From the sequence record PV295200.1: a DNA stretch of 64,000 nucleotides. One strand, given 5' to 3'. The notes beneath the pieces are model-generated. The model had not been told where the DNA came from. It did no database searches and worked only from the letters and a program-made list of their open reading frames with translations. This document shows positions 9,207-32,159 of the stretch, in pieces (position 1 is the stretch's first letter; each line of letters begins with the position of its first letter). This DNA comes from Escherichia phage vB_Eco_BCPEco_001. The position numbers were made by a program, and so were the translations under genes.

Positions 9207-10211
9207 TTAAAATGTAAACAGAATATTGATTTCTTCTGTTTGATCCATTGCCATAATAATAGGTGGCCTATTTTCCATATAAATCATTTCGCCCGAATGC
9301 CTCATTAAATCTTCTGGGTCATAATAATCCTTTTCAGCTTTAACGTTTGGGTCATTTGGATGAGCTTTAGCTTCAAGAGGATTCGTGATTATTGATATTT
9401 GTCTAAATCCTTTATTTCCTGGCAATGCAGCATCAGGAAAATAAACTGAATCTAAATATGCTTTAAAACGGATAGTATTTGCCTTAACCCGGTAAATTAA
9501 TCCAAAATCATCTTGCTGCCAAGTGAGATTATCTTCATATCCCCATCTAGTCGGGTCTTCTTTTAATTCCTCAGGCCAAGGAACCACAATATATTCATTC
9601 GTGCATCTATTTATAGATACATCGGGTGGAATCTCAAAAAGATATTCCCATACATACCCGTCCCCAGGTTCAATTGTTCCTTCAGCATCTCCTCGACCTT
9701 CAGGAGGAGTCATTGACCTAACAGAAGGTGTCCATTTTCCGCCTAATTTAAGGCATTCATCCTTATCAGTTAAAGATGCAATTGAACACATTCCAGTATC
9801 AGGAACATCTAAACAACGATATACTAACCAGCCTGCGCCTGATTCAGTAGCGTTGTAAGGAGCTGAGTTACACACTACAATATCGTTAATTCTAAATGTG
9901 TATGGATCCGGATATCTAGTATCTCCCCAATCTCGACGAGGAATAACTGCGTCAAGCATTGATGGAAGAACCTTTACTGTTCCCATCATATGCGTCCACA
10001 TGTCAGTTACGCCTAATACAGAATCAGTTGGATAAGGTGGAGCAAAGCCCACCTCATTTTCATTTGATGACCACGGTTCTGATCTTCCAAATGTGATAAA
10101 GATAGTGTTTTTATCCGGACCACTCCCAATTGAATTATAAAAATTCAACATTTTTTCTGTTCTAAATTTTGAAGTAACTATCGCACGATAGATAACACTT
10201 GAATCATTCAT
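9207..10211 (-). CDS. 8: baseplate wedge protein gp8
   Basis: 334 aa, same size as T4 gp8; conserved order 6-7-8-9. Confidence 0.8.
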   Translation of the reverse strand: MNDSSVIYRAIVTSKFRTEKMLNFYNSIGSGPDKNTIFITFGRSEPWSSNENEVGFAPPYPTDSVLGVTDMWTHMMGTVKVLPSMLDAVIPRRDWGDTRYPDPYTFRINDIVVCNSAPYNATESGAGWLVYRCLDVPDTGMCSIASLTDKDECLKLGGKWTPSVRSMTPPEGRGDAEGTIEPGDGYVWEYLFEIPPDVSINRCTNEYIVVPWPEELKEDPTRWGYEDNLTWQQDDFGLIYRVKANTIRFKAYLDSVYFPDAALPGNKGFRQISIITNPLEAKAHPNDPNVKAEKDYYDPEDLMRHSGEMIYMENRPPIIMAMDQTEEINILFTF

Positions 10212-13200
10212 CTATTTTAACCTGTGTTGGATTTTCAGGGTCTCTTGGATTTCCTATATTGTCTTTTAGACGTTTATTAACTAAATCTCTAAATTGTGCA
10301 AATGTTGTTCCAGAAGCATCAAATAGAGGACTCATTAATTTACGTCGTTCAGACGGCAATTGACCTTGAAACATTGAATTATTATTTTCAGCATTATAGT
10401 CATCAGGAAGAGGATATTCTACACCAGCCATTGGGCCAGGTTCATAAATTGCTTCTCCTGTTACTGAATCATGTTCAATTTCGCCAGTTGGAGTTAATTT
10501 AGCTACTCTATCAGCATATTCAGTAGGCAATCCAGAATCCCATTTGTAGTTTTTGTATTTATTAATTATAGTCTCTGTGTGTTTAAGAGTTAAACCAACA
10601 TTAATAAACATCGTTAAAAGGGTAATTGCTATAAATCCAAATCCTACTGGATGAACAAAACGAATAACGTCAGATTTCCAGCGAGAAGAAGGTAAATTGG
10701 ATTTAATTTTCATTACATAATATGATCGGCTTCTATTAATATAGTCTATATTATTTTGAAGCAAATCCTTTCCTTTAACCCCACGAATAATTTCGCCTTC
10801 AAAACTAGGAAGTCTTTCTGCTTTAACTTCTTGACCAGCAATTAATCTTCCCAAAAGATTATGAATAGTTACGGTCCATTGCAATTTACCATTAGAATAA
10901 CTTCTTTCTATATAAGTAACATTACATCTTCCTGTGGATGTATAAATCGTTTGTCCTACTAAATCTTCAGTCAAAGAATCAGATTGAACGATTATGTCAT
11001 ATTCAGTACCAGCCCCAGATTCAATTTCAATTTCAACTTCTTCATTATAAAGAACTTTAAAAAGAAACTTGTATGATGCTTCAATTCCTTTAGTAGAATA
11101 AAAATCATAGCTACGTGATTCAAAAAATCTTGCAACAGCATCTCGCTTATCCGCGTTCAAATAAATGTTTCTTTTATATATCTCTGACCACAAATATTCC
11201 CATGCATGCTCTTCTCGTGGATACTGATTACGAATTAAATTTCGTAAATTGTTATACTGAGTTCCATATCCATCAGAAAGATACTGAATATATGCTTCGC
11301 AAAATGCCTCAAAATTCGAATCCTGCAACAAATAAGAATCAGGCATCATTGTGCCAATTAATGGTCTTAAATCAGGATCAGCTAATCCATGCTCTTCTTC
11401 TGGTGACCAAGGAGTCTCATGCTCTTGGTTTTGTAAAAATGCTTTTAAAAATACTCCAGTCGGCTTCCAAATAATTTCTACTGTATCTCTCACACGATAG
11501 TTAAAATCATAGTAAGAAATTATTTCACCAGAGGCTTTATAGAAAAGCATTCCTGATGCATATTTTTTAAATCCAGTGAATTTAACATTTGGCATTACTA
11601 TAGTGCAATCACCATCATCCCAGTATTCATGAACTAATCTATCTGGTGATGTTTCCGGAATATTTTCTATAACTTTAGTGTATTTTAAATCAGCATAAAC
11701 TACTACAGCTCTATCAGAATTGTTTATCCAACAGCGTGTGTTAGATTTTTTAGACCAGTTAAAGAACGGTTCTGCGTAGTATTTCATTGGTTGAGGAGTA
11801 AAAGTCTCCCAATCAGATTTTTCATCCGCTATAAATGCCATCATATGATAATGCTTATCAGCTAACCATTCACGAGGAAATTCATATTTAACAGCACCGA
11901 TTAACTGATATTTTGCTGCAGTTTCAGGGTCATTAACAATGTTATCACTTAAAAATTTAAAATTACTCGAAGATAGAGAAACTAATTTACCGTCAGTTGA
12001 CATATTCGCATATCCGGGTTGAATACGTCTTCTTTCTTCTTCGGTATTACCGAAAACTCTTTTCCATGTTTTTTCGTCATGATTTAAAACATATATTCCT
12101 TTATCAGCAGAATCAATTATTTTTGAAGTTCTCGGATTGGCATTTAATGTTTCAACTTCACCAATAATAAGAGCAAAAACTTTATCACCGATAGAATCCA
12201 TTTTATAGCATACTGCTTTAGGATTTCCAGTTATAGTCATTGTATCAGGTTCAAAAAGTCTTTCCGAATATGTTGGAGATAATGGATCAGAATCTATAGG
12301 TGCATTACTCGTTTTTATGTATCTAACTTTATCTCTGGCGACAACGTAAATGTAATCATCGGTGCAAGTAATAGCTTCTGCAATGCGGTATACATTCGCT
12401 GGTAAAGTCGCGTAAGTGGCAAAAATTTCTACATCAAACCCTAGATGCAATTGGTCACCAAGTTTAGCAAATGTTATATCATGCGAACTAAATCTGACAT
12501 CATCGGCTGACCATCTAACATCAGTAGATTTACGGCCGTAGAAAATCTTGTCGTATCCTAGAACGTATGTCGTGTTTGCAGATTGGTAATATACTGTCTT
12601 AGATAAAGGATATCCTACACGGTCATTGAAGAGCTTTACAGCTTTCCAGGTTTGTCCTTTATCATTAGATACTTTAACCACGGGTTGATAACGCTCAAAA
12701 AGATATAGAATCCCTTCTGATTCCATCAAATAAACTCGGTTAATATCCTTACATACTTGCTGAATGGAACCTTGTATTTCATGATACTCATTTTCACCAA
12801 TAATAAAATTACTGATTGATGAAACATCAACATATGATGGGCTGAATTGGAACGATTCATTCATCAATGCAGCCATTATAGTGTCATTATTAAAATTGAC
12901 ATAATTAGAATTGTTAAGAGTAAATTTTTCCTGAATGAATTTATTGGCTAATTGCATTTCAATCATGTTTTGAAATGTGTAAGCATTCGTAGCAAAAGTT
13001 TCAAACTCTTCCGTATAAACCCAATCAGATTGCTCAAAATCTTGTGCAGCTGTAGCTACTCTAATGATGTATGATGTTAGTGGATCAGCATCATCAAAAA
13101 AGAAACTATTGTTTGCTGTATATCCTAAATTAATCCAACGATATTGATCACTCGGGAGATTTTCCCCCGAGTCTGTTTTTGTCTCAGCGATTTCTACAAA

Positions 13201-24069: not shown

Positions 24070-24142
24070 TGGGAATTAGCCAAGTTGGTAAGGCATAGCA
24101 CTTTGACTGCTAGATGCAAAGGTTCGAGTCCTTTATTCCCAG
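24070..24142 (+). tRNA. tRNA-Gln (anticodon UUG)
   Basis: Cloverleaf read by eye: acceptor tgggaat/attccca, anticodon loop ctTTGac, T-loop ggttcgagtcc. Confidence 0.8.
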
Positions 24143-24143
24143 C

Positions 24144-24230
24144 GCGAGAATGGTCAAATTGGTAAAGACACAGCACTTAAAATGCTGCGGAATGATTTCC
24201 TTGTGGGTTCGAGTCCCACTTCTCGTACCA
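24144..24230 (+). tRNA. tRNA-Leu (anticodon UAA), long variable arm, CCA encoded
   Basis: Acceptor gcgagaa/ttctcgt, anticodon loop ctTAAaa, T-loop gggttcgagtccc, 3' acca. Confidence 0.8.
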
Positions 24231-24236
24231 AAGTTT

Positions 24237-24308
<72 letters not shown>

Positions 24309-24320
24309 AAATTTAATTTA

Positions 24321-24394
24321 CTTCGTGTAGCTCAGTTTGGTAGAGCGTCTGCTTTGGGAGCAGAATGTCGCAGGTTCAAATCCTGCCGCGGAGA
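24321..24394 (+). tRNA. tRNA-Pro (anticodon UGG)
   Basis: Anticodon stem tctgc/gcaga with loop ttTGGga, T-loop caggttcaaatcctg; acceptor stem has G-U pairs. Confidence 0.75.
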
Positions 24395-24396
24395 CT

Positions 24397-24483
24397 GGAG
24401 GCGTGGCAGAGTGGTTTAATGCACCGGTCTTGAAAACCGGCAGTCGCTCCGGCGACTCATAGGTTCAAATCCTATCGCCTCCG
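24397..24483 (+). tRNA. tRNA-Ser (anticodon UGA), long variable arm
   Basis: Acceptor ggaggcg/cgcctcc, anticodon loop ctTGAaa, variable arm cagtcgctccggcgactc, T-loop aggttcaaatcct. Confidence 0.8.
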
Positions 24484-24490
24484 TAATTTC

Positions 24491-24563
24491 GCTGATTTAG
24501 CTCAGTAGGTAGAGCAACTCACTTGTAATGAGAAGGTCGGCGGTTCGATTCCGTCAATCAGCA
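24491..24563 (+). tRNA. tRNA-Thr (anticodon UGU)
   Basis: Acceptor gctgatt/aatcagc, anticodon loop ctTGTaa, T-loop cggttcgattccg. Confidence 0.8.
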
Positions 24564-24569
24564 TATCAA

Positions 24570-24641
24570 GGCCCTGTAGCTGGAAGGTTCAAGCAAGCGA
24601 CTCATAATCGCCAGATGGTGGTTCAATTCCACCCAGGGCCA
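24570..24641 (+). tRNA. tRNA-Ile (anticodon CAU, presumably modified to read AUA)
   Basis: Acceptor ggccctg/cagggcc, anticodon loop ctCATaa, T-loop tggttcaattcca; T4 is known to carry a CAU-anticodon tRNA-Ile. Confidence 0.75.
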
Positions 24642-24682
24642 TATTTTGAGAACATAAATACTCTTAGAAATAGGAGATATTT

Positions 24683-25348
24683 ATGTTCTATTACATTTAT
24701 AAAATAACAAATAAAATTAATAATAAAATCTATATAGGCGCTCATTCTACCGAAAATTTAGATGATGGATATATGGGTTCTGGTAAATTATTAAAAAGAG
24801 CCCAAGATAAGTATGGTATAGAAAATTTTTCTAAAGAAATATTAGAGTATTTTGACGATAAAACCTCTATGTTTGAGTCAGAAAAGAATATTGTGGCTGA
24901 AGAGTTTTTAAAGCGCCCTGATGTTTATAATTTGAAATTAGGTGGTGAAGGTGGTTGGGACCATTTAAACACTAAAGAATATTTGGATAAAAAGAAAGAA
25001 GCTTCCTTAAAAGGAGCTGCCGCTTTTAAAACCAGATTTGAGAACGACCCAGACCTTAAAGAAAAATATCGTAAAATGGGTTCAGAAAGGTTTAAACAGC
25101 TTTGGGATAATCCTAAGTATAGAGAGAAATTTTTAAATACTAAATCTTTCTTGGGTAAGACCCATACTCCTGAAACTATTAATAAAATGAAAGAATCTCA
25201 CGCCAGAAATAAACACCAACAAGGTGAAAAGAATTCCCAATTTGGTATGATGTGGATTCATTCATTAGATGAAAAAGTTTCTAAACGTATTAAGAAAACT
25301 GACCCAATTCCAGAAGGATGGTTTAAAGGTCGAAAAATGAAATTTTAA
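24683..25348 (+). CDS. segB: GIY-YIG homing endonuclease SegB
   Basis: 221 aa inside the tRNA cluster; N-terminal YYIYKITNKINNKIYIGAHS...DDGYMGSG module. Confidence 0.8.
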   Translation: MFYYIYKITNKINNKIYIGAHSTENLDDGYMGSGKLLKRAQDKYGIENFSKEILEYFDDKTSMFESEKNIVAEEFLKRPDVYNLKLGGEGGWDHLNTKEYLDKKKEASLKGAAAFKTRFENDPDLKEKYRKMGSERFKQLWDNPKYREKFLNTKSFLGKTHTPETINKMKESHARNKHQQGEKNSQFGMMWIHSLDEKVSKRIKKTDPIPEGWFKGRKMKF

Positions 25349-25351
25349 TTA

Positions 25352-25428
<77 letters not shown>

Positions 25429-28628: not shown

Positions 28629-29113
28629 TTTTAAAAACTCGCTGGTATGATTTAGATGATGGGGATGATGGCATTTCAGTTGATAGAGTTGACTGGAATG
28701 GTTGTTCCGAAGATATGAAAAATTTGTTGATTAGGGAGTTTAGAATGGGATATCAAGCAGCTAAGCCATTTACTGTAACAGATGATAAGTTCGTATGTAT
28801 TCAAAACGGTCGCGCTAAGTTAACGAACGCTGATTGGTTCACAGATAAAATTATGATTCTGTGGTATATTATTAGTCTTCCTGTGACATCATTCGTATTT
28901 TACTTTTTTATAAAAAATCCAATGGACAGAATAGGAGATTGGATTCTTTTAACCATACTTGTTAATATTTTTACAGCAGCAATATTATCTGGGATATGGT
29001 ACACGTTCATTGAAATGCCATGGCGGCTACGCAGACAACAAAAGATTTTTGATGAAAAGAAATACGTTCAAAATTTAAATAACTTTATCACTGAATGCAG
29101 GAAATTAAAATGA
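28625..29113 (+). CDS. two-TM membrane protein, paralog family member 3
   Basis: 162 aa; two hydrophobic helices, tail ending FITECRKLK; ATGA overlap with nudE. Confidence 0.5.
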   Translation: MILKTRWYDLDDGDDGISVDRVDWNGCSEDMKNLLIREFRMGYQAAKPFTVTDDKFVCIQNGRAKLTNADWFTDKIMILWYIISLPVTSFVFYFFIKNPMDRIGDWILLTILVNIFTAAILSGIWYTFIEMPWRLRRQQKIFDEKKYVQNLNNFITECRKLK

Positions 29114-29550
29114 AAACACTATCAGCTGGTATTATCTTTATGACAGAAGATAGAGATTTATTTATGGGTCGGGTTACTGGTTCTCGTAAGCCTGGAATGA
29201 TGGCACATCGCTGGGATATTCCAAAGGGCCGCGTAGAAAATTCTGATTTGAATGCACTGGAAGCTGCAAAAAGAGAATGCTTAGAAGAGACTGGCTTTAG
29301 CAATTATAATCCAGACCTTCTAGAAGACCTAGGTGTATTTAAATATTCTAGTAATAAAGACTTACAGTTATTTTATTATACGATTCCAGTAGAGCATGAG
29401 ATGTTTAGAAATTGTCGTTGCGAGTCTTATTTTGAAAATAAAGATGGTGTTATGATTCCAGAGATGGATGCTTTTGCTCTTATTCCTCGTATTCAGTGGC
29501 AATATGTGATGGGTCCTTCACTTTACCGAATAATGAACAACCTCTTTTAA
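29110..29550 (+). CDS. nudE: Nudix hydrolase NudE
   Basis: Nudix box GRVENSDLNALEAAKRECLEETG; ATG at 29110 overlaps upstream stop (alternative start 29095); immediately upstream of lysozyme e as in T4. Confidence 0.75.
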   Translation: MKTLSAGIIFMTEDRDLFMGRVTGSRKPGMMAHRWDIPKGRVENSDLNALEAAKRECLEETGFSNYNPDLLEDLGVFKYSSNKDLQLFYYTIPVEHEMFRNCRCESYFENKDGVMIPEMDAFALIPRIQWQYVMGPSLYRIMNNLF

Positions 29551-30081
<531 letters not shown>

Positions 30082-30085
30082 AGTT

Positions 30086-30115
30086 GTTTACTTTCTCCTA
30101 GAATTGTGATAGTAT
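30086..30115 (+). promoter_or_regulatory. early promoter upstream of denV
   Basis: GTTTAC, 18 nt, TG-a-TAGTAT. Confidence 0.5.
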
Positions 30116-30140
30116 ATTCACAGTTACTTGGAGGGATAAA

Positions 30141-30557
30141 ATGACTCGTATTAATTTGACTTTAGTATCTGAACTTGCTGATCAACATTTAATCGCAGAA
30201 TACCGTGAATTGCCGCGTGTTTTTGGTATAGTTCGTAAGCATGTGGCAAACGGTAAGCGCGTTAAAGATTTTAAAATATCTTCTAAATTTATTTTAGGTT
30301 CTGGTCATGTTACTTTCTTTTACGATAAGTTAGAATTTTTGCGAAAGCGTCAATCGGACATTATAACGGAATGCTTAAAACGCGGGTTCAGTATAAAAGA
30401 TACTGAAGTTCCTGACATCAGCGATATTCCAGCAGAATGGAAAAATGATTATAACCCATGCAAATCGGCTATTAAATTGAGTCAACAACGACTCGATGAA
30501 AAAATTTTAATGAAGCCACACTGGTATAAATACTACGGCAAAAATATTTACATTTAA
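30141..30557 (+). CDS. denV: endonuclease V (pyrimidine dimer DNA glycosylase)
   Basis: 138 aa; [29 protein letters not shown]... recognisably T4 DenV with scattered substitutions. Confidence 0.85.
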
Positions 30558-30703
30558 ATAACATGGGAATAACCTGGACCTCATGATTCTGTGAGGGATT
30601 CCCGCCAACCTGTAATAAGGTCGAGCCCAAGTGCGGTAATGGGTAAATACAGAAATGGACAATTCATGCGCCATGGAATGGCCCAAACCTAGAGAGAACA
30701 AAA

Positions 30704-31243
30704 ATGAGAACATTTTTAACTGGTCCTTATCTATCCCTGATGAATGCTTTTACACACCATTCTGATGCTAGAGTAGAAGAAATTTGTAAAAACGATTATA
30801 TCCTATCATTTGAAGACTTACTTAAACAGTATTGCACACTTCGACTAGATGGTGGACGTCAATCCGGTAAATCAATTGCTGTGACTAACTTTGCTGCTAA
30901 TTGGTTGTATGATGGCGGAACAGTTATTGTTCTTTCTAATACTTCAGCTTACGCTAAAATTTCTGCAAATAACATCAAAAAGGAATTTTCGCGTTATTCT
31001 AATGATGATATACGTTTTCGTTTATTTACTGATTCTGTACGCAGTTTTATTGGTAATAAAGGAAGCAAGTTCAGAGGTTTATCGCTTTCGCGAATTTTGT
31101 ATATAATTGATGAGCCTGTCAAATCTCCTGATATGGATAAGATTTATGATGCTCATATTGACACTGTACAGTACTGCTGCAATAGTAAATGCTGCATTGG
31201 CGGTATTACTCGTCCGCAGTTTTTCGTAATTGGAATGCAATGA
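30704..31243 (+). CDS. small P-loop NTPase-like protein
   Basis: 179 aa; Walker A-like DGGRQSGKS and Walker B-like ILYIIDEP; Cys-rich C-terminus (CCNSKCC). Confidence 0.45.
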   Translation: MRTFLTGPYLSLMNAFTHHSDARVEEICKNDYILSFEDLLKQYCTLRLDGGRQSGKSIAVTNFAANWLYDGGTVIVLSNTSAYAKISANNIKKEFSRYSNDDIRFRLFTDSVRSFIGNKGSKFRGLSLSRILYIIDEPVKSPDMDKIYDAHIDTVQYCCNSKCCIGGITRPQFFVIGMQ

Positions 31244-31569
31244 TGACAGATACGCAACTTTTCGAATATCTTTATTTTTCGCCAAAAACTATTAAAAATA
31301 AATTGGTGAATCATTTTGAAATTTTGGCAAATAACAACGTCTTGAGCGAATTTTATCCCAAGCAATACAAATTACAAAAAGGTGTATTCAAAGGATGCAG
31401 AGTTTTGTGCACTGCTCCTAATGCAAGATTAATGAATAAAATTCCATATTTTACCATGGAATTTATTGATGGACCATTTAAAGGATTAATTACTCAAAGT
31501 TTAATGGCATATGATTCTGAGCCATTTTTAATTAAAGAACAATCTTGGATAAAATTATTTTCTAATTGA
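31240..31569 (+). CDS. hypothetical protein
   Basis: 109 aa from ATG at 31240 (ATGA overlap with upstream gene). Confidence 0.45.
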   Translation: MMTDTQLFEYLYFSPKTIKNKLVNHFEILANNNVLSEFYPKQYKLQKGVFKGCRVLCTAPNARLMNKIPYFTMEFIDGPFKGLITQSLMAYDSEPFLIKEQSWIKLFSN

Positions 31570-31575
31570 GGTTAT

Positions 31576-31938
31576 ATGAAAGCATATCAAATTCTTGAAG
31601 GCACACATAAAGGTACTATTTATTTTGAAGATGGTATTCAAGCACGAATTATTGTCTCTAAAACCTTTAAAGAGGACTCTTTTGTAGACCCAGAAATTTT
31701 CTATGGTTTGCATGCCCGTGAAATTGAAATTGAGCAACAGCCTACAGTTAAAATTGAAGGTGGTCAACACCTGAACGTTAACGTTCTGCGTCGTGAAACT
31801 CTGGAAGATGCAGTTAAGCATCCGGAAAAATATCCGCAGCTGACCATCCGTGTATCCGGTTATGCAGTTCGCTTTAACTCTCTGACTCCGGAACAGCAGC
31901 GCGACGTTATCGCTCGTACCTTTACCGAGAGTTTGTAA
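31576..31938 (+). CDS. autonomous glycyl radical cofactor (GrcA/YfiD-like) protein
   Basis: 120 aa; C-terminal about 64 residues ([60 protein letters not shown]) carry the glycyl radical motif RVSGY and match E. coli GrcA as recalled; this part uses GC-rich host-like codons. Confidence 0.8.
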
Positions 31939-32159
31939 TGGCAAAGATAATTATTGAAGGTTCTGAAGATGTGCTAAATGCTTTCGCCGAGTGGTTTAGT
32001 AATTCAGGCGAACAGCAATTTAATGAAGCCTGGAATATGGGTGATATTGATGGAATTTATCCTACGACAGAAATTTCTGTTCAGGGATATGGCATTCATG
32101 AACCTATTCGTTTAGTTGAATACGATTTATGCACTGGTGAGGAAGTCAAATATGATTGA
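31938..32159 (+). CDS. hypothetical acidic protein
   Basis: 73 aa ORF, ATGG overlap with upstream stop. Confidence 0.45.
   Translation: MAKIIIEGSEDVLNAFAEWFSNSGEQQFNEAWNMGDIDGIYPTTEISVQGYGIHEPIRLVEYDLCTGEEVKYD

Follow-up and report, generated by a model that had tools for sequence, protein, structure and literature searches.

A conserved pseudoknotted RNA structure, found ahead of vs.8 in T4-like phages and also in other phages of Gammaproteobacteria

The tRNA cluster of phage T4 contains two small structured RNAs, rnaC and rnaD ("species 1 and 2"), which are co-transcribed with the tRNAs and released by tRNA-type processing. Hammerhead, twister, pistol and HDV (hepatitis delta virus)-like "theta" ribozymes appear scattered in phage genomes, without a consistent neighbour gene, adjacent to tRNA genes and in tandem copies. 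Other systems that invite comparison are the orphan RNAs GOLLD and ROOL, which occur near phage tRNAs, the aptamers of riboswitches (purine, THF, ZTP), the packaging RNA (pRNA) of phi29, and the PeSL cassettes of T4-type hyperplastic regions, which Arbiol and colleagues are said to have described in 2010 as multi-copy and as combining a stem-loop with an early promoter. Here we compare with these an element lying in the gap between the genes denV and vs.8 (positions 30558-30703) of a stretch of 64,000 nucleotides (nt) from Escherichia phage vB_Eco_BCPEco_001 (record PV295200.1). The phage is a Tequatrovirus, the plus strand of the stretch corresponds to the T4 early direction, and the whole stretch is referred to below as the window.

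In rV5-like, PsgM04F-like and some siphophage relatives the element sits in tRNA arrays of the kind that hold rnaC and rnaD. However, no sequence or structure relation to those RNAs was found; a covariance model (CM) of the element's core matches nothing else in the window, including the tRNA cluster at 24070-25428, and in T4-likes the element is about 5 kb away from the tRNAs, inside an mRNA. With the orphan RNAs and riboswitch aptamers it shares an invariant junction, covarying helices, a pseudoknot, tandem copies and aptamer size, but it has no match in Rfam 15 and no consistent class of downstream gene, and its size is well below that of GOLLD or ROOL. It belongs to a known kind, the orphan structured phage RNAs, in which it forms a new family. 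The interval between tRNA-Met and tRNA-Arg, which in T4 contains the stable RNAs rnaC and rnaD, measures 710 nt in the window (24642-25351) and has no Rfam match there.

The gap holds a conserved, non-coding, pseudoknotted RNA structure that is specific to phages and widely distributed among those of Gammaproteobacteria. We have little doubt that the structure is under selection at the level of RNA. An earlier reading of the sequence alone had offered a small RNA or a regulatory structure among its guesses for this gap, and the compensatory base changes described below show that there is indeed a conserved structure at the RNA level. Its parts in the window copy are the following.

30565..30684, plus strand: whole element, Tequatrovirus "A-type" (P1/P2 domain, three-way-junction core, tail and T4-like-specific 3' module), based on blastn, the T4/rV5 alignment and the CM match
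30565..30570, plus strand: P1 5' strand GGGAAU, pairing with AUUCCC at 30598-30603
30598..30603, plus strand: P1 3' strand AUUCCC, partner of GGGAAU at 30565-30570
30571..30578, plus strand: 8-nt internal loop on the 5' side of the P1 domain, AACCUGGA, which in relatives supplies the 5' strand of the pseudoknot
30579..30596, plus strand: P2 hairpin CCUCA-UGAUUCUG-UGAGG, compensated in relatives
30604-30644, plus strand: three-way-junction core P3/P4/P5, with the GUAAUA hexaloop, an invariant bulged G and the GGUAA junction strand
30604..30607, plus strand: P3 5' strand GCCA of the junction-closing helix, covarying columns
30608..30621, plus strand: P4 hairpin ACCU-GUAAUA-AGGU (30608-30611/30618-30621), hexaloop G-Y-R-N-N-A across the family
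30622..30634, plus strand: J4/5 (CGA) and P5 mini-hairpin (G30625-C30634, C30626-G30633) with the variable 6-nt loop CCAAGU
30635..30639, plus strand: J5/3 junction strand GGUAA, the same in all copies collected with patterns requiring GGUAA
30640..30644, plus strand: P3 3' strand U-(G)-GGU, bulged at the invariant G30641
30645..30654, plus strand: 3' tail AAAUACAGAA, including the pseudoknot 3' strand CAG at 30650-30652
30655..30684, plus strand: 3' module specific to T4-likes, AUGGA at 30655-30659 and hairpin GCC-AUGGAAU-GGC at 30670-30682, then CC

The 5' hairpin domain P1/P2 abuts P3. P2 is the CCTCA/TGAGG hairpin that the earlier reading had pointed out (30579-30583/30592-30596); it is present, as a minor part of the full structure. 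T4-likes have three subtypes of the 5' domain, A, B and C, and the window and T4 belong to A. The 3' module, whose hairpin has the consensus GCC-ANGGAAY-GGC after AUGGA, is kept in all subtypes of T4-likes and is missing from rV5-like, D-type and siphophage copies; we infer a role for this module, in which no covariation is available.

The fold rests on comparison of relatives (L numbers below are our handles for them). We collected 53 distinct cores by pattern scans of IMG/VR and metagenomes and from GenBank phages, and aligned them with 8-9 nt of flank per side, the flanks lying outside every search pattern. In P3, the column of A30607-U30640 is AU in 33 cores, UA in 8, UG in 8 and CG in 4, while that of C30606-G30642 is CG in 36, UA in 7, GC in 6, AU in 3 and GU in 1, with no core unpaired at either; C30605-G30643 is CG in 40 and GC in 12, with one unpaired, and G30604.U30644 is a less regular pair. 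The covariation score of the helix is 0.294 compared to 0.079 +/- 0.013 in shuffled alignments, none of 500 reaching the observed value, and slid controls give at most 0.07. G30641 (alignment column 42) is invariant and is unpaired in this best register, which replaced a first one without the bulge that scored 0.200. Two early pairings, CCGC/GCGG and GCCC/GGGU, were dropped because they are not kept in B-type sequences.

Compensation is also found in the 5' domain. P1 appears as GGGAG/CUCCC in L018, GGGG/CCCC in rV5 and GGAAC/GUUCC in L035, and P2 as CCUUA/UAAGG in L116 and CACAU/AUGUG in rV5. In T4-likes of types B and C the closing pair equivalent to P1 (columns 7-56) is CG 14 times, GC 14 times and AU once, and four sequences of these types lack both partners of one P2 base pair. 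The search patterns required GGUAA, P4 and P5; the invariance of the P4 stem in the 53 cores is thus partly a matter of construction. A single divergent tandem copy found by the CM has the compensated P4 stem GCCU/AGGC, tandem second copies have a C-G to U-A change in P5, and a hybrid second copy recovered by the CM in L027 (36 bits) reads GGCAA instead of GGUAA. The P5 loop is free to vary, with AGC...GCG fixed.

The pseudoknot is best seen in the B and C types, where the partner of the P1-domain internal loop is a stretch of the tail 8-12 nt past P3. Among 30 such sequences, column pair 12-112 is CG in 27, UA in 2 and GU in 1; 13-111 is CG in 14, AU in 8, UA in 6 and GC in 1; and 14-110 is GC in 20 and CG in 9. 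The helix occurs in variants as different as CCGA/UCGG, CGCCGA/UCGGUG, ACAC/GUGU, CCUGA/UCAGG and CUCGA/UCGAG. Taken together, the pseudoknot, P1, P2, P4, P5 and one pair of P3 score 0.214 in these 30 sequences compared to 0.073 +/- 0.008, and RNAalifold picks the same pseudoknot helix unprompted. Comparable helices between loop and tail are present in rV5-likes and in L055, L056, L065, L034 and L141. A generic duplex-energy test had given -8.9 kcal/mol for cognate and -9.0 kcal/mol for non-cognate regions; the regions were too long and included other stems, and the test was replaced by the column test in a fixed register. As would be looked for in a riboswitch aptamer, the fold is supported by covariation, namely in P3, the pseudoknot and the P1 helices. 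Since the covarying helices contain G.U pairs, the plus strand is the one that folds, and the orientation of the element always matches that of neighbouring tRNAs and genes.

Two other pairings were noticed. The P2 loop UUCUG (30587-30591) is complementary to CAGAA of the tail (30650-30654), and this pairing, which can be extended to 7 bp into P2, would give the phage an alternative pseudoknot; it is not possible in T4, which has UUAUA there. RNAalifold also proposes a GUAA/UUAC hairpin competing with P3 (A3 columns 93-96/103-106, equivalent to G30636-A30638/U30648-C30650 in the window). UUAC directly after P3 is conserved in B/C-type T4-likes, and the hairpin is without covariation.

Conservation in phages, which the earlier reading had proposed to check by BLASTN, is extensive: 1034 phage records match a 181-nt query, and the query stretch is 100% identical in Shigella phage vB_Shso_BCPShso_001. 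Tequatrovirus, Jiaodavirus, Kanagawavirus, T4-likes of Yersinia, rV5-likes and Pseudomonas phage PsgM04F have virtually the same core, and it stays about 100% identical across T4-likes in which Vs.8 identity drops to 37%. Further copies are present in contigs related to the 46-kb Klebsiella siphophages DP01, MK54 and BUCT541, to siphophages of the phiEap-2/FSL SP-031 type and to siphophages of Pseudoalteromonas. In the window itself the core CM matches 30600-30648 at 69.9 bits (E-value 2e-24), the next best score in the 64 kb being 9.6 bits, which puts the element far outside chance, and the copy remains the only one whether up to 3 mismatches are allowed or the CM is used. Tandem pairs about 40-65 nt apart occur in L065 (829-962), L067 (9020-9180) and L059 (5092-5251), with second copies that diverge more and score 37-48 bits.

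A remnant of captured host DNA, another of the earlier guesses, finds no backing. Blastn against 5,426 complete E. coli genomes (20,395 records) gives no match, and a 19-nt pattern scan of one genome for each of 185,579 bacterial and archaeal species (GTDB) gave six chance matches, all without the rest of the motif and scoring 16-23 bits. The only "plasmid" match is a record of 137.6 kb, the size of rV5. In a search of 29000-32000 with the 4227 models of Rfam 15, none overlaps the element at an E-value of 10 or less, the search of the whole window gives no match above gathering score there, and at the element in nine diverse relatives none matches at 1 or less. ARAGORN finds 8 tRNAs at 24070-25428 and none at the element, where the Rfam tRNA model has no match either. 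A search of an incomplete body of literature did not turn up a published description, and the element may figure in large lists of candidates.

The genomic surroundings differ between lineages. In all T4-likes examined the element ends about 20 nt before the start of vs.8, and the gene on its 5' side may be denV, ipIII, an internal virion protein gene or a hypothetical gene; in other T4-like genera the region is an unannotated intergenic gap of 160-200 nt. Elsewhere the element is co-oriented with tRNA genes and often lies between them (L026, L034, L056, L141, L045, L064, L073). In L076 it is found downstream of an endolysin gene, between a promoter-like site and a 13-bp terminator, and in L056 a terminator begins about 15 nt past the core. 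Genes downstream are unrelated (a tail protein, a major tail protein, an HNH endonuclease, holin/spanin, vs.8), and rV5 has an annotated promoter between the element and the open reading frame (ORF) that follows. The functionally related downstream genes expected of a riboswitch are thus not found: vs.8 follows in T4-likes only, and unrelated genes or tRNAs follow elsewhere.

Several peculiarities of these neighbourhoods deserve mention. In PsgM04F (L026, 2440-2640) and in contigs resembling the 46-kb Klebsiella siphophages (L045, L047, L064 and L073), the element and neighbouring tRNA-like units are each enclosed by inverted repeats of about 20 bp (arms ...GUGCUCUUAUCGUUGUGA / UCACAACACACAACAGGUAAGAGCA...), which look like processing stems of the RNase III type. 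In a subgroup of rV5-likes (L035, L036, L037, L055) a direct repeat TAGAGGGCTTGA(T/A)AGTGC lies about 60 nt either side of the element. The tRNA array near the copy in L047 includes, at 9535-9610, a tRNA with the anticodon CTA, amber-suppressor-like and labelled "Pyl" by ARAGORN. The contig L056 has a match to the group I intron (Rfam RF00028, 54 bits) at 12784-13079.

How might such an RNA work? The segment would be the template of a compact non-coding pseudoknotted RNA, made from the plus strand as are denV, vs.8 and the tRNA genes. We lean towards a structured phage RNA that is most likely a stable small RNA, of about 100-130 nt, which would act by binding a conserved partner. Since the junction, the bulged G and P4 are frozen while the helices covary and neighbouring proteins diverge to 37%, the junction is probably contacted directly by a highly conserved partner, which may be a protein of host or phage, an RNA or a small ligand. 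That the RNA is a discrete, stable and trans-acting one is a serious candidate explanation, which we hold tentatively; it is favoured because the contexts are gene-like (tRNA arrays, processing-type stems, promoter and terminator) and because the downstream genes are unrelated. In T4-likes, the window included, the RNA would be embedded in a polycistronic early transcript as a leader of vs.8, and it would be released by processing or act in cis as well.

Some observations weigh against this interpretation. The element is glued to the start of vs.8, together with the 3' module, in about 1000 T4-likes, and a cis-acting leader fits that arrangement at least as well. No promoter-like or terminator-like site flanks the element in the window, and hence a discrete RNA would need processing; flanks consisting of an own promoter or terminator or of tRNAs are seen in L076, L056, L026 and L141, not here. 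The gap at 30558-30703 contains no terminator-like site, P2 and the 3' hairpin being without U-tracts, and no promoter-like hexamers were found in it or next to it on the plus strand. The A subtype of the window keeps a pseudoknot of 3 bp only (C30574-G30652, U30575-A30651, G30576-C30650). The constancy of P4, P5 and the junction is over-stated by a sample collected with patterns, and their pairings rest on a few divergent copies. Finally, RNA structure prediction, which the earlier reading had proposed as a check, bears out a structure when covariation is used, but folding of the single sequence is ordinary: z-scores are near 0 for either strand and for the core alone (+0.28, -0.05 and -0.21, the first being for 30555-30705 and the last for the core), and the minimum free energy (MFE) fold differs from the covariation fold. 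Folding energies by themselves thus say nothing useful about this element.

The strict coupling to vs.8 in T4-likes keeps in play a cis-acting leader, riboswitch-like or a protein operator, whose folded junction would respond to a ligand or bind a protein and in this way set the translation or stability of the vs.8-vs.7-vs.6 (grcA) mRNA, the same sensor being coupled to terminators in other phages. We consider this rather unlikely, in spite of several features that suit it: the element keeps its distance of about 20 nt from vs.8 whatever the 5' gene, the T4-like-specific 3' module bridges to the Shine-Dalgarno (SD) region, and the roughly 1000 genomes with the element are about those that have vs.8. 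Riboswitches typically have a pseudoknotted junction of aptamer size whose junction nucleotides are invariant; tandem copies occur, and in L056 and L076 there is a terminator past the element. The AUGGA motif and the loop A-N-GGA-A of the hairpin, moreover, resemble CsrA binding sites. However, the genes downstream in other lineages have no common function, several copies lie between tRNA genes or in processing-type stems where there is no ORF to regulate, and the annotated promoter of rV5 stands between the element and the next ORF. The MFE fold leaves the SD sequence of vs.8 free, no alternative pairing that is conserved turned up, and no expression platform is backed by covariation. Also unlikely, in our opinion, is a new functional class of RNA that is itself biochemically active. 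Such an RNA might be a ribozyme, for self-cleavage or processing, or else a sensor or decoy with an invariant junction that binds a universal cellular molecule or a component of the machinery of translation or RNA processing. The module would be shared and exchanged by virulent phages of Gammaproteobacteria that are otherwise unrelated (T4-, rV5- and phAPEC8-like myoviruses and several groups of siphoviruses). Taken separately, a new class of self-cleaving ribozyme or dedicated processing signal that cuts polycistronic or tRNA-array transcripts at one defined position seems improbable. Its attraction is the small junction with a tertiary pseudoknot and about 20 invariant nucleotides concentrated in the junction, in an element that, like the small phage ribozymes, is scattered in phage genomes with no consistent neighbour, tRNA-adjacent and in tandem; yet it lacks their core consensus, no ribozyme family of Rfam 15 matches, and inspection reveals no hammerhead, twister or HDV core motif.

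Explanations at the level of DNA or protein are weak. The element borders a region in which T4-likes differ in gene content, as would suit a recombination hotspot or PeSL-like cassette boundary in the hyperplastic ip/denV region, a homing-endonuclease target or a small mobile element, and near-identical 40-nt blocks in unrelated phages would favour recombination. In Klebsiella phage UTI-K1 (L027, 1035-1607) an additional ipII-like gene for an internal virion protein (1162-1464, phrog_7857) lies between two copies, the first scoring 65 bits and the second hybrid or degenerate at 36 bits, as though recombination at the element had brought in a gene cassette. Like PeSL, the element is conserved non-coding sequence bordering a variable gene region, and it can flank an inserted gene; unlike PeSL, it is single-copy, has no promoter match and has a far more elaborate fold. 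The compensatory changes, G.U pairs included, are strand-specific and preserve RNA helices, the window has one copy and no promoter hexamers, and the element always points in the direction of transcription. It is more plausible that conservation led to recombination than the reverse, and we regard this explanation as very improbable. Even less credit can be given to a protein-coding role, be it through extra N-terminal residues of Vs.8, as annotated in T4, or through a small ORF of one strand or the other, and the arrangement of genes around the gap is needed for its discussion.

29095-29550, plus strand: nudE
29587-30081, plus strand: e
30141-30557, plus strand: denV, 138 residues, 78% amino acid identity to T4 DenV, TAA at 30555-30557
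30558-30703: gap of 146 nt from the denV stop to the vs.8 ATG
30690-30706, plus strand: translation start region of vs.8, with TAG at 30690-30692, a purine-rich SD-like GAGAGA and ATG at 30704; unpaired in the MFE fold
30704-31243, plus strand: vs.8 homologue, 179 residues, 96% identical to T4 Vs.8 residues 41-219
3' of vs.8, plus strand: vs.7, then the grcA-like vs.6

T4 carries the same sequence directly after denV, so the contrast with T4 implied by the earlier reading was mistaken: in T4 the element is hidden in an over-extended vs.8. In NC_000866 it is annotated as residues 1-40 of a Vs.8 of 219 residues, with the ATG inside the element (L002 3254-3913, minus strand, equal to 64253-64912 of the record), and this annotation is what speaks for coding, along with mechanical ORFs that overlap the gap: two on the plus strand, GTG 30591-30692 (33 residues) and ATG 30655-30765 (36 residues), and one of 68 residues on the minus strand. 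However, the T4 frame is open only through an insertion of about 10 nt. In the window it is closed by the TAG at 30690-30692, and in other Tequatroviruses it is closed or shifted, the extension not being conserved. Copies of the B, C, rV5 and D types differ by indels that are not multiples of three, and variation falls in paired columns and in the P5 loop, not in third codon positions. The PHROG 1488 profile (177 positions) matches only residues 3-179 of the Vs.8 of 179 residues. It therefore appears, from these sequence comparisons, that vs.8 of T4 has been over-extended by 40 codons and that the conserved protein is of about 179 residues.

The claim that the gap has no plus-strand ORF was right in substance, there being stops in all three plus frames and neither of the two mechanical ORFs being conserved; nor was a coding frame misread, the frame being closed in the window and in most relatives. 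Its length had been put at 145 nt; the gap is real and, counted from the denV TAA to the vs.8 ATG, measures 146 nt. It is also as GC-rich as was said, at 0.459 compared to a window mean of 0.347 (standard deviation 0.047, windows of 146 nt), a value attained by only 1.8% of such windows, and the structured part at 30565-30684, with 0.50, is in the top 0.6%.

Vs.8 shows a weak P-loop/terminase-ATPase similarity (phrog_2, E-value 9e-6; Pfam Terminase_6N, E-value 0.11) and gave nothing in NCBIfam or the PDB; it is confined to T4-likes, and ORF74 of rV5, once considered as a relative, is unrelated. This brings to mind the pRNA of phi29, which is likewise a phage RNA of about 120 nt with a three-way junction and loop-loop pairing, since the element of T4-likes adjoins a small P-loop ATPase with that similarity. 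There is no sequence similarity between the two RNAs, however, and the relatives of the element outside T4-likes have no vs.8. We know of no RNA requirement in T4 packaging.

The hexaloop GUAAUA of P4 also caps an arm of a three-way junction in the GTPase-associated centre of 23S rRNA (nt 1093-1098), and this loop and parts of the 3' end of 16S rRNA look similar to the element by eye. The order of the arms differs, and the longest word shared with the E. coli rrnH operon (16S, 23S, 5S and three tRNAs) is of 9 nt, a length reached by 80-90% of shuffles; mimicry of rRNA was rejected, neither similarity nor complementarity to the operon being above chance. A stimulator of stop-codon readthrough or frameshifting, a late promoter (TTTAAATA at 30553-30560) and a mimic of an anticodon loop were dropped by inspection; they are not conserved across contexts.

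T4 is probably the most closely studied phage, and yet an RNA structure of about 120 nt, whose conservation exceeds that of nearly every T4 protein, has seemingly gone unannotated in it. The same junction occurs in at least six phage lineages with Escherichia, Klebsiella, Yersinia, Enterobacter and Pseudomonas as hosts, and in further contigs related to phages of Pseudoalteromonas and Edwardsiella. This spread over lineages, often in tRNA arrays, argues for an important function at the RNA level that can be moved between phages. The start of vs.8 can be corrected in T4 and in many derived annotations, and a covariance-model seed is gained for annotating more than 1000 genomes. The system is suited to experiment: T4 genetics exist, the helices are defined and the invariant junction could be used as bait.

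A last observation concerns the gene preceding the gap. As the earlier reading had noted from the gene order, e and denV are adjacent in the window, with neither ipII nor ipIII, whereas T4 has ipIII and ipII between them. DenV is just 78% identical to its T4 counterpart, whereas the flanking element and Vs.8 are about 96-97% identical, and this difference suggests a mosaic junction in this part of the window.

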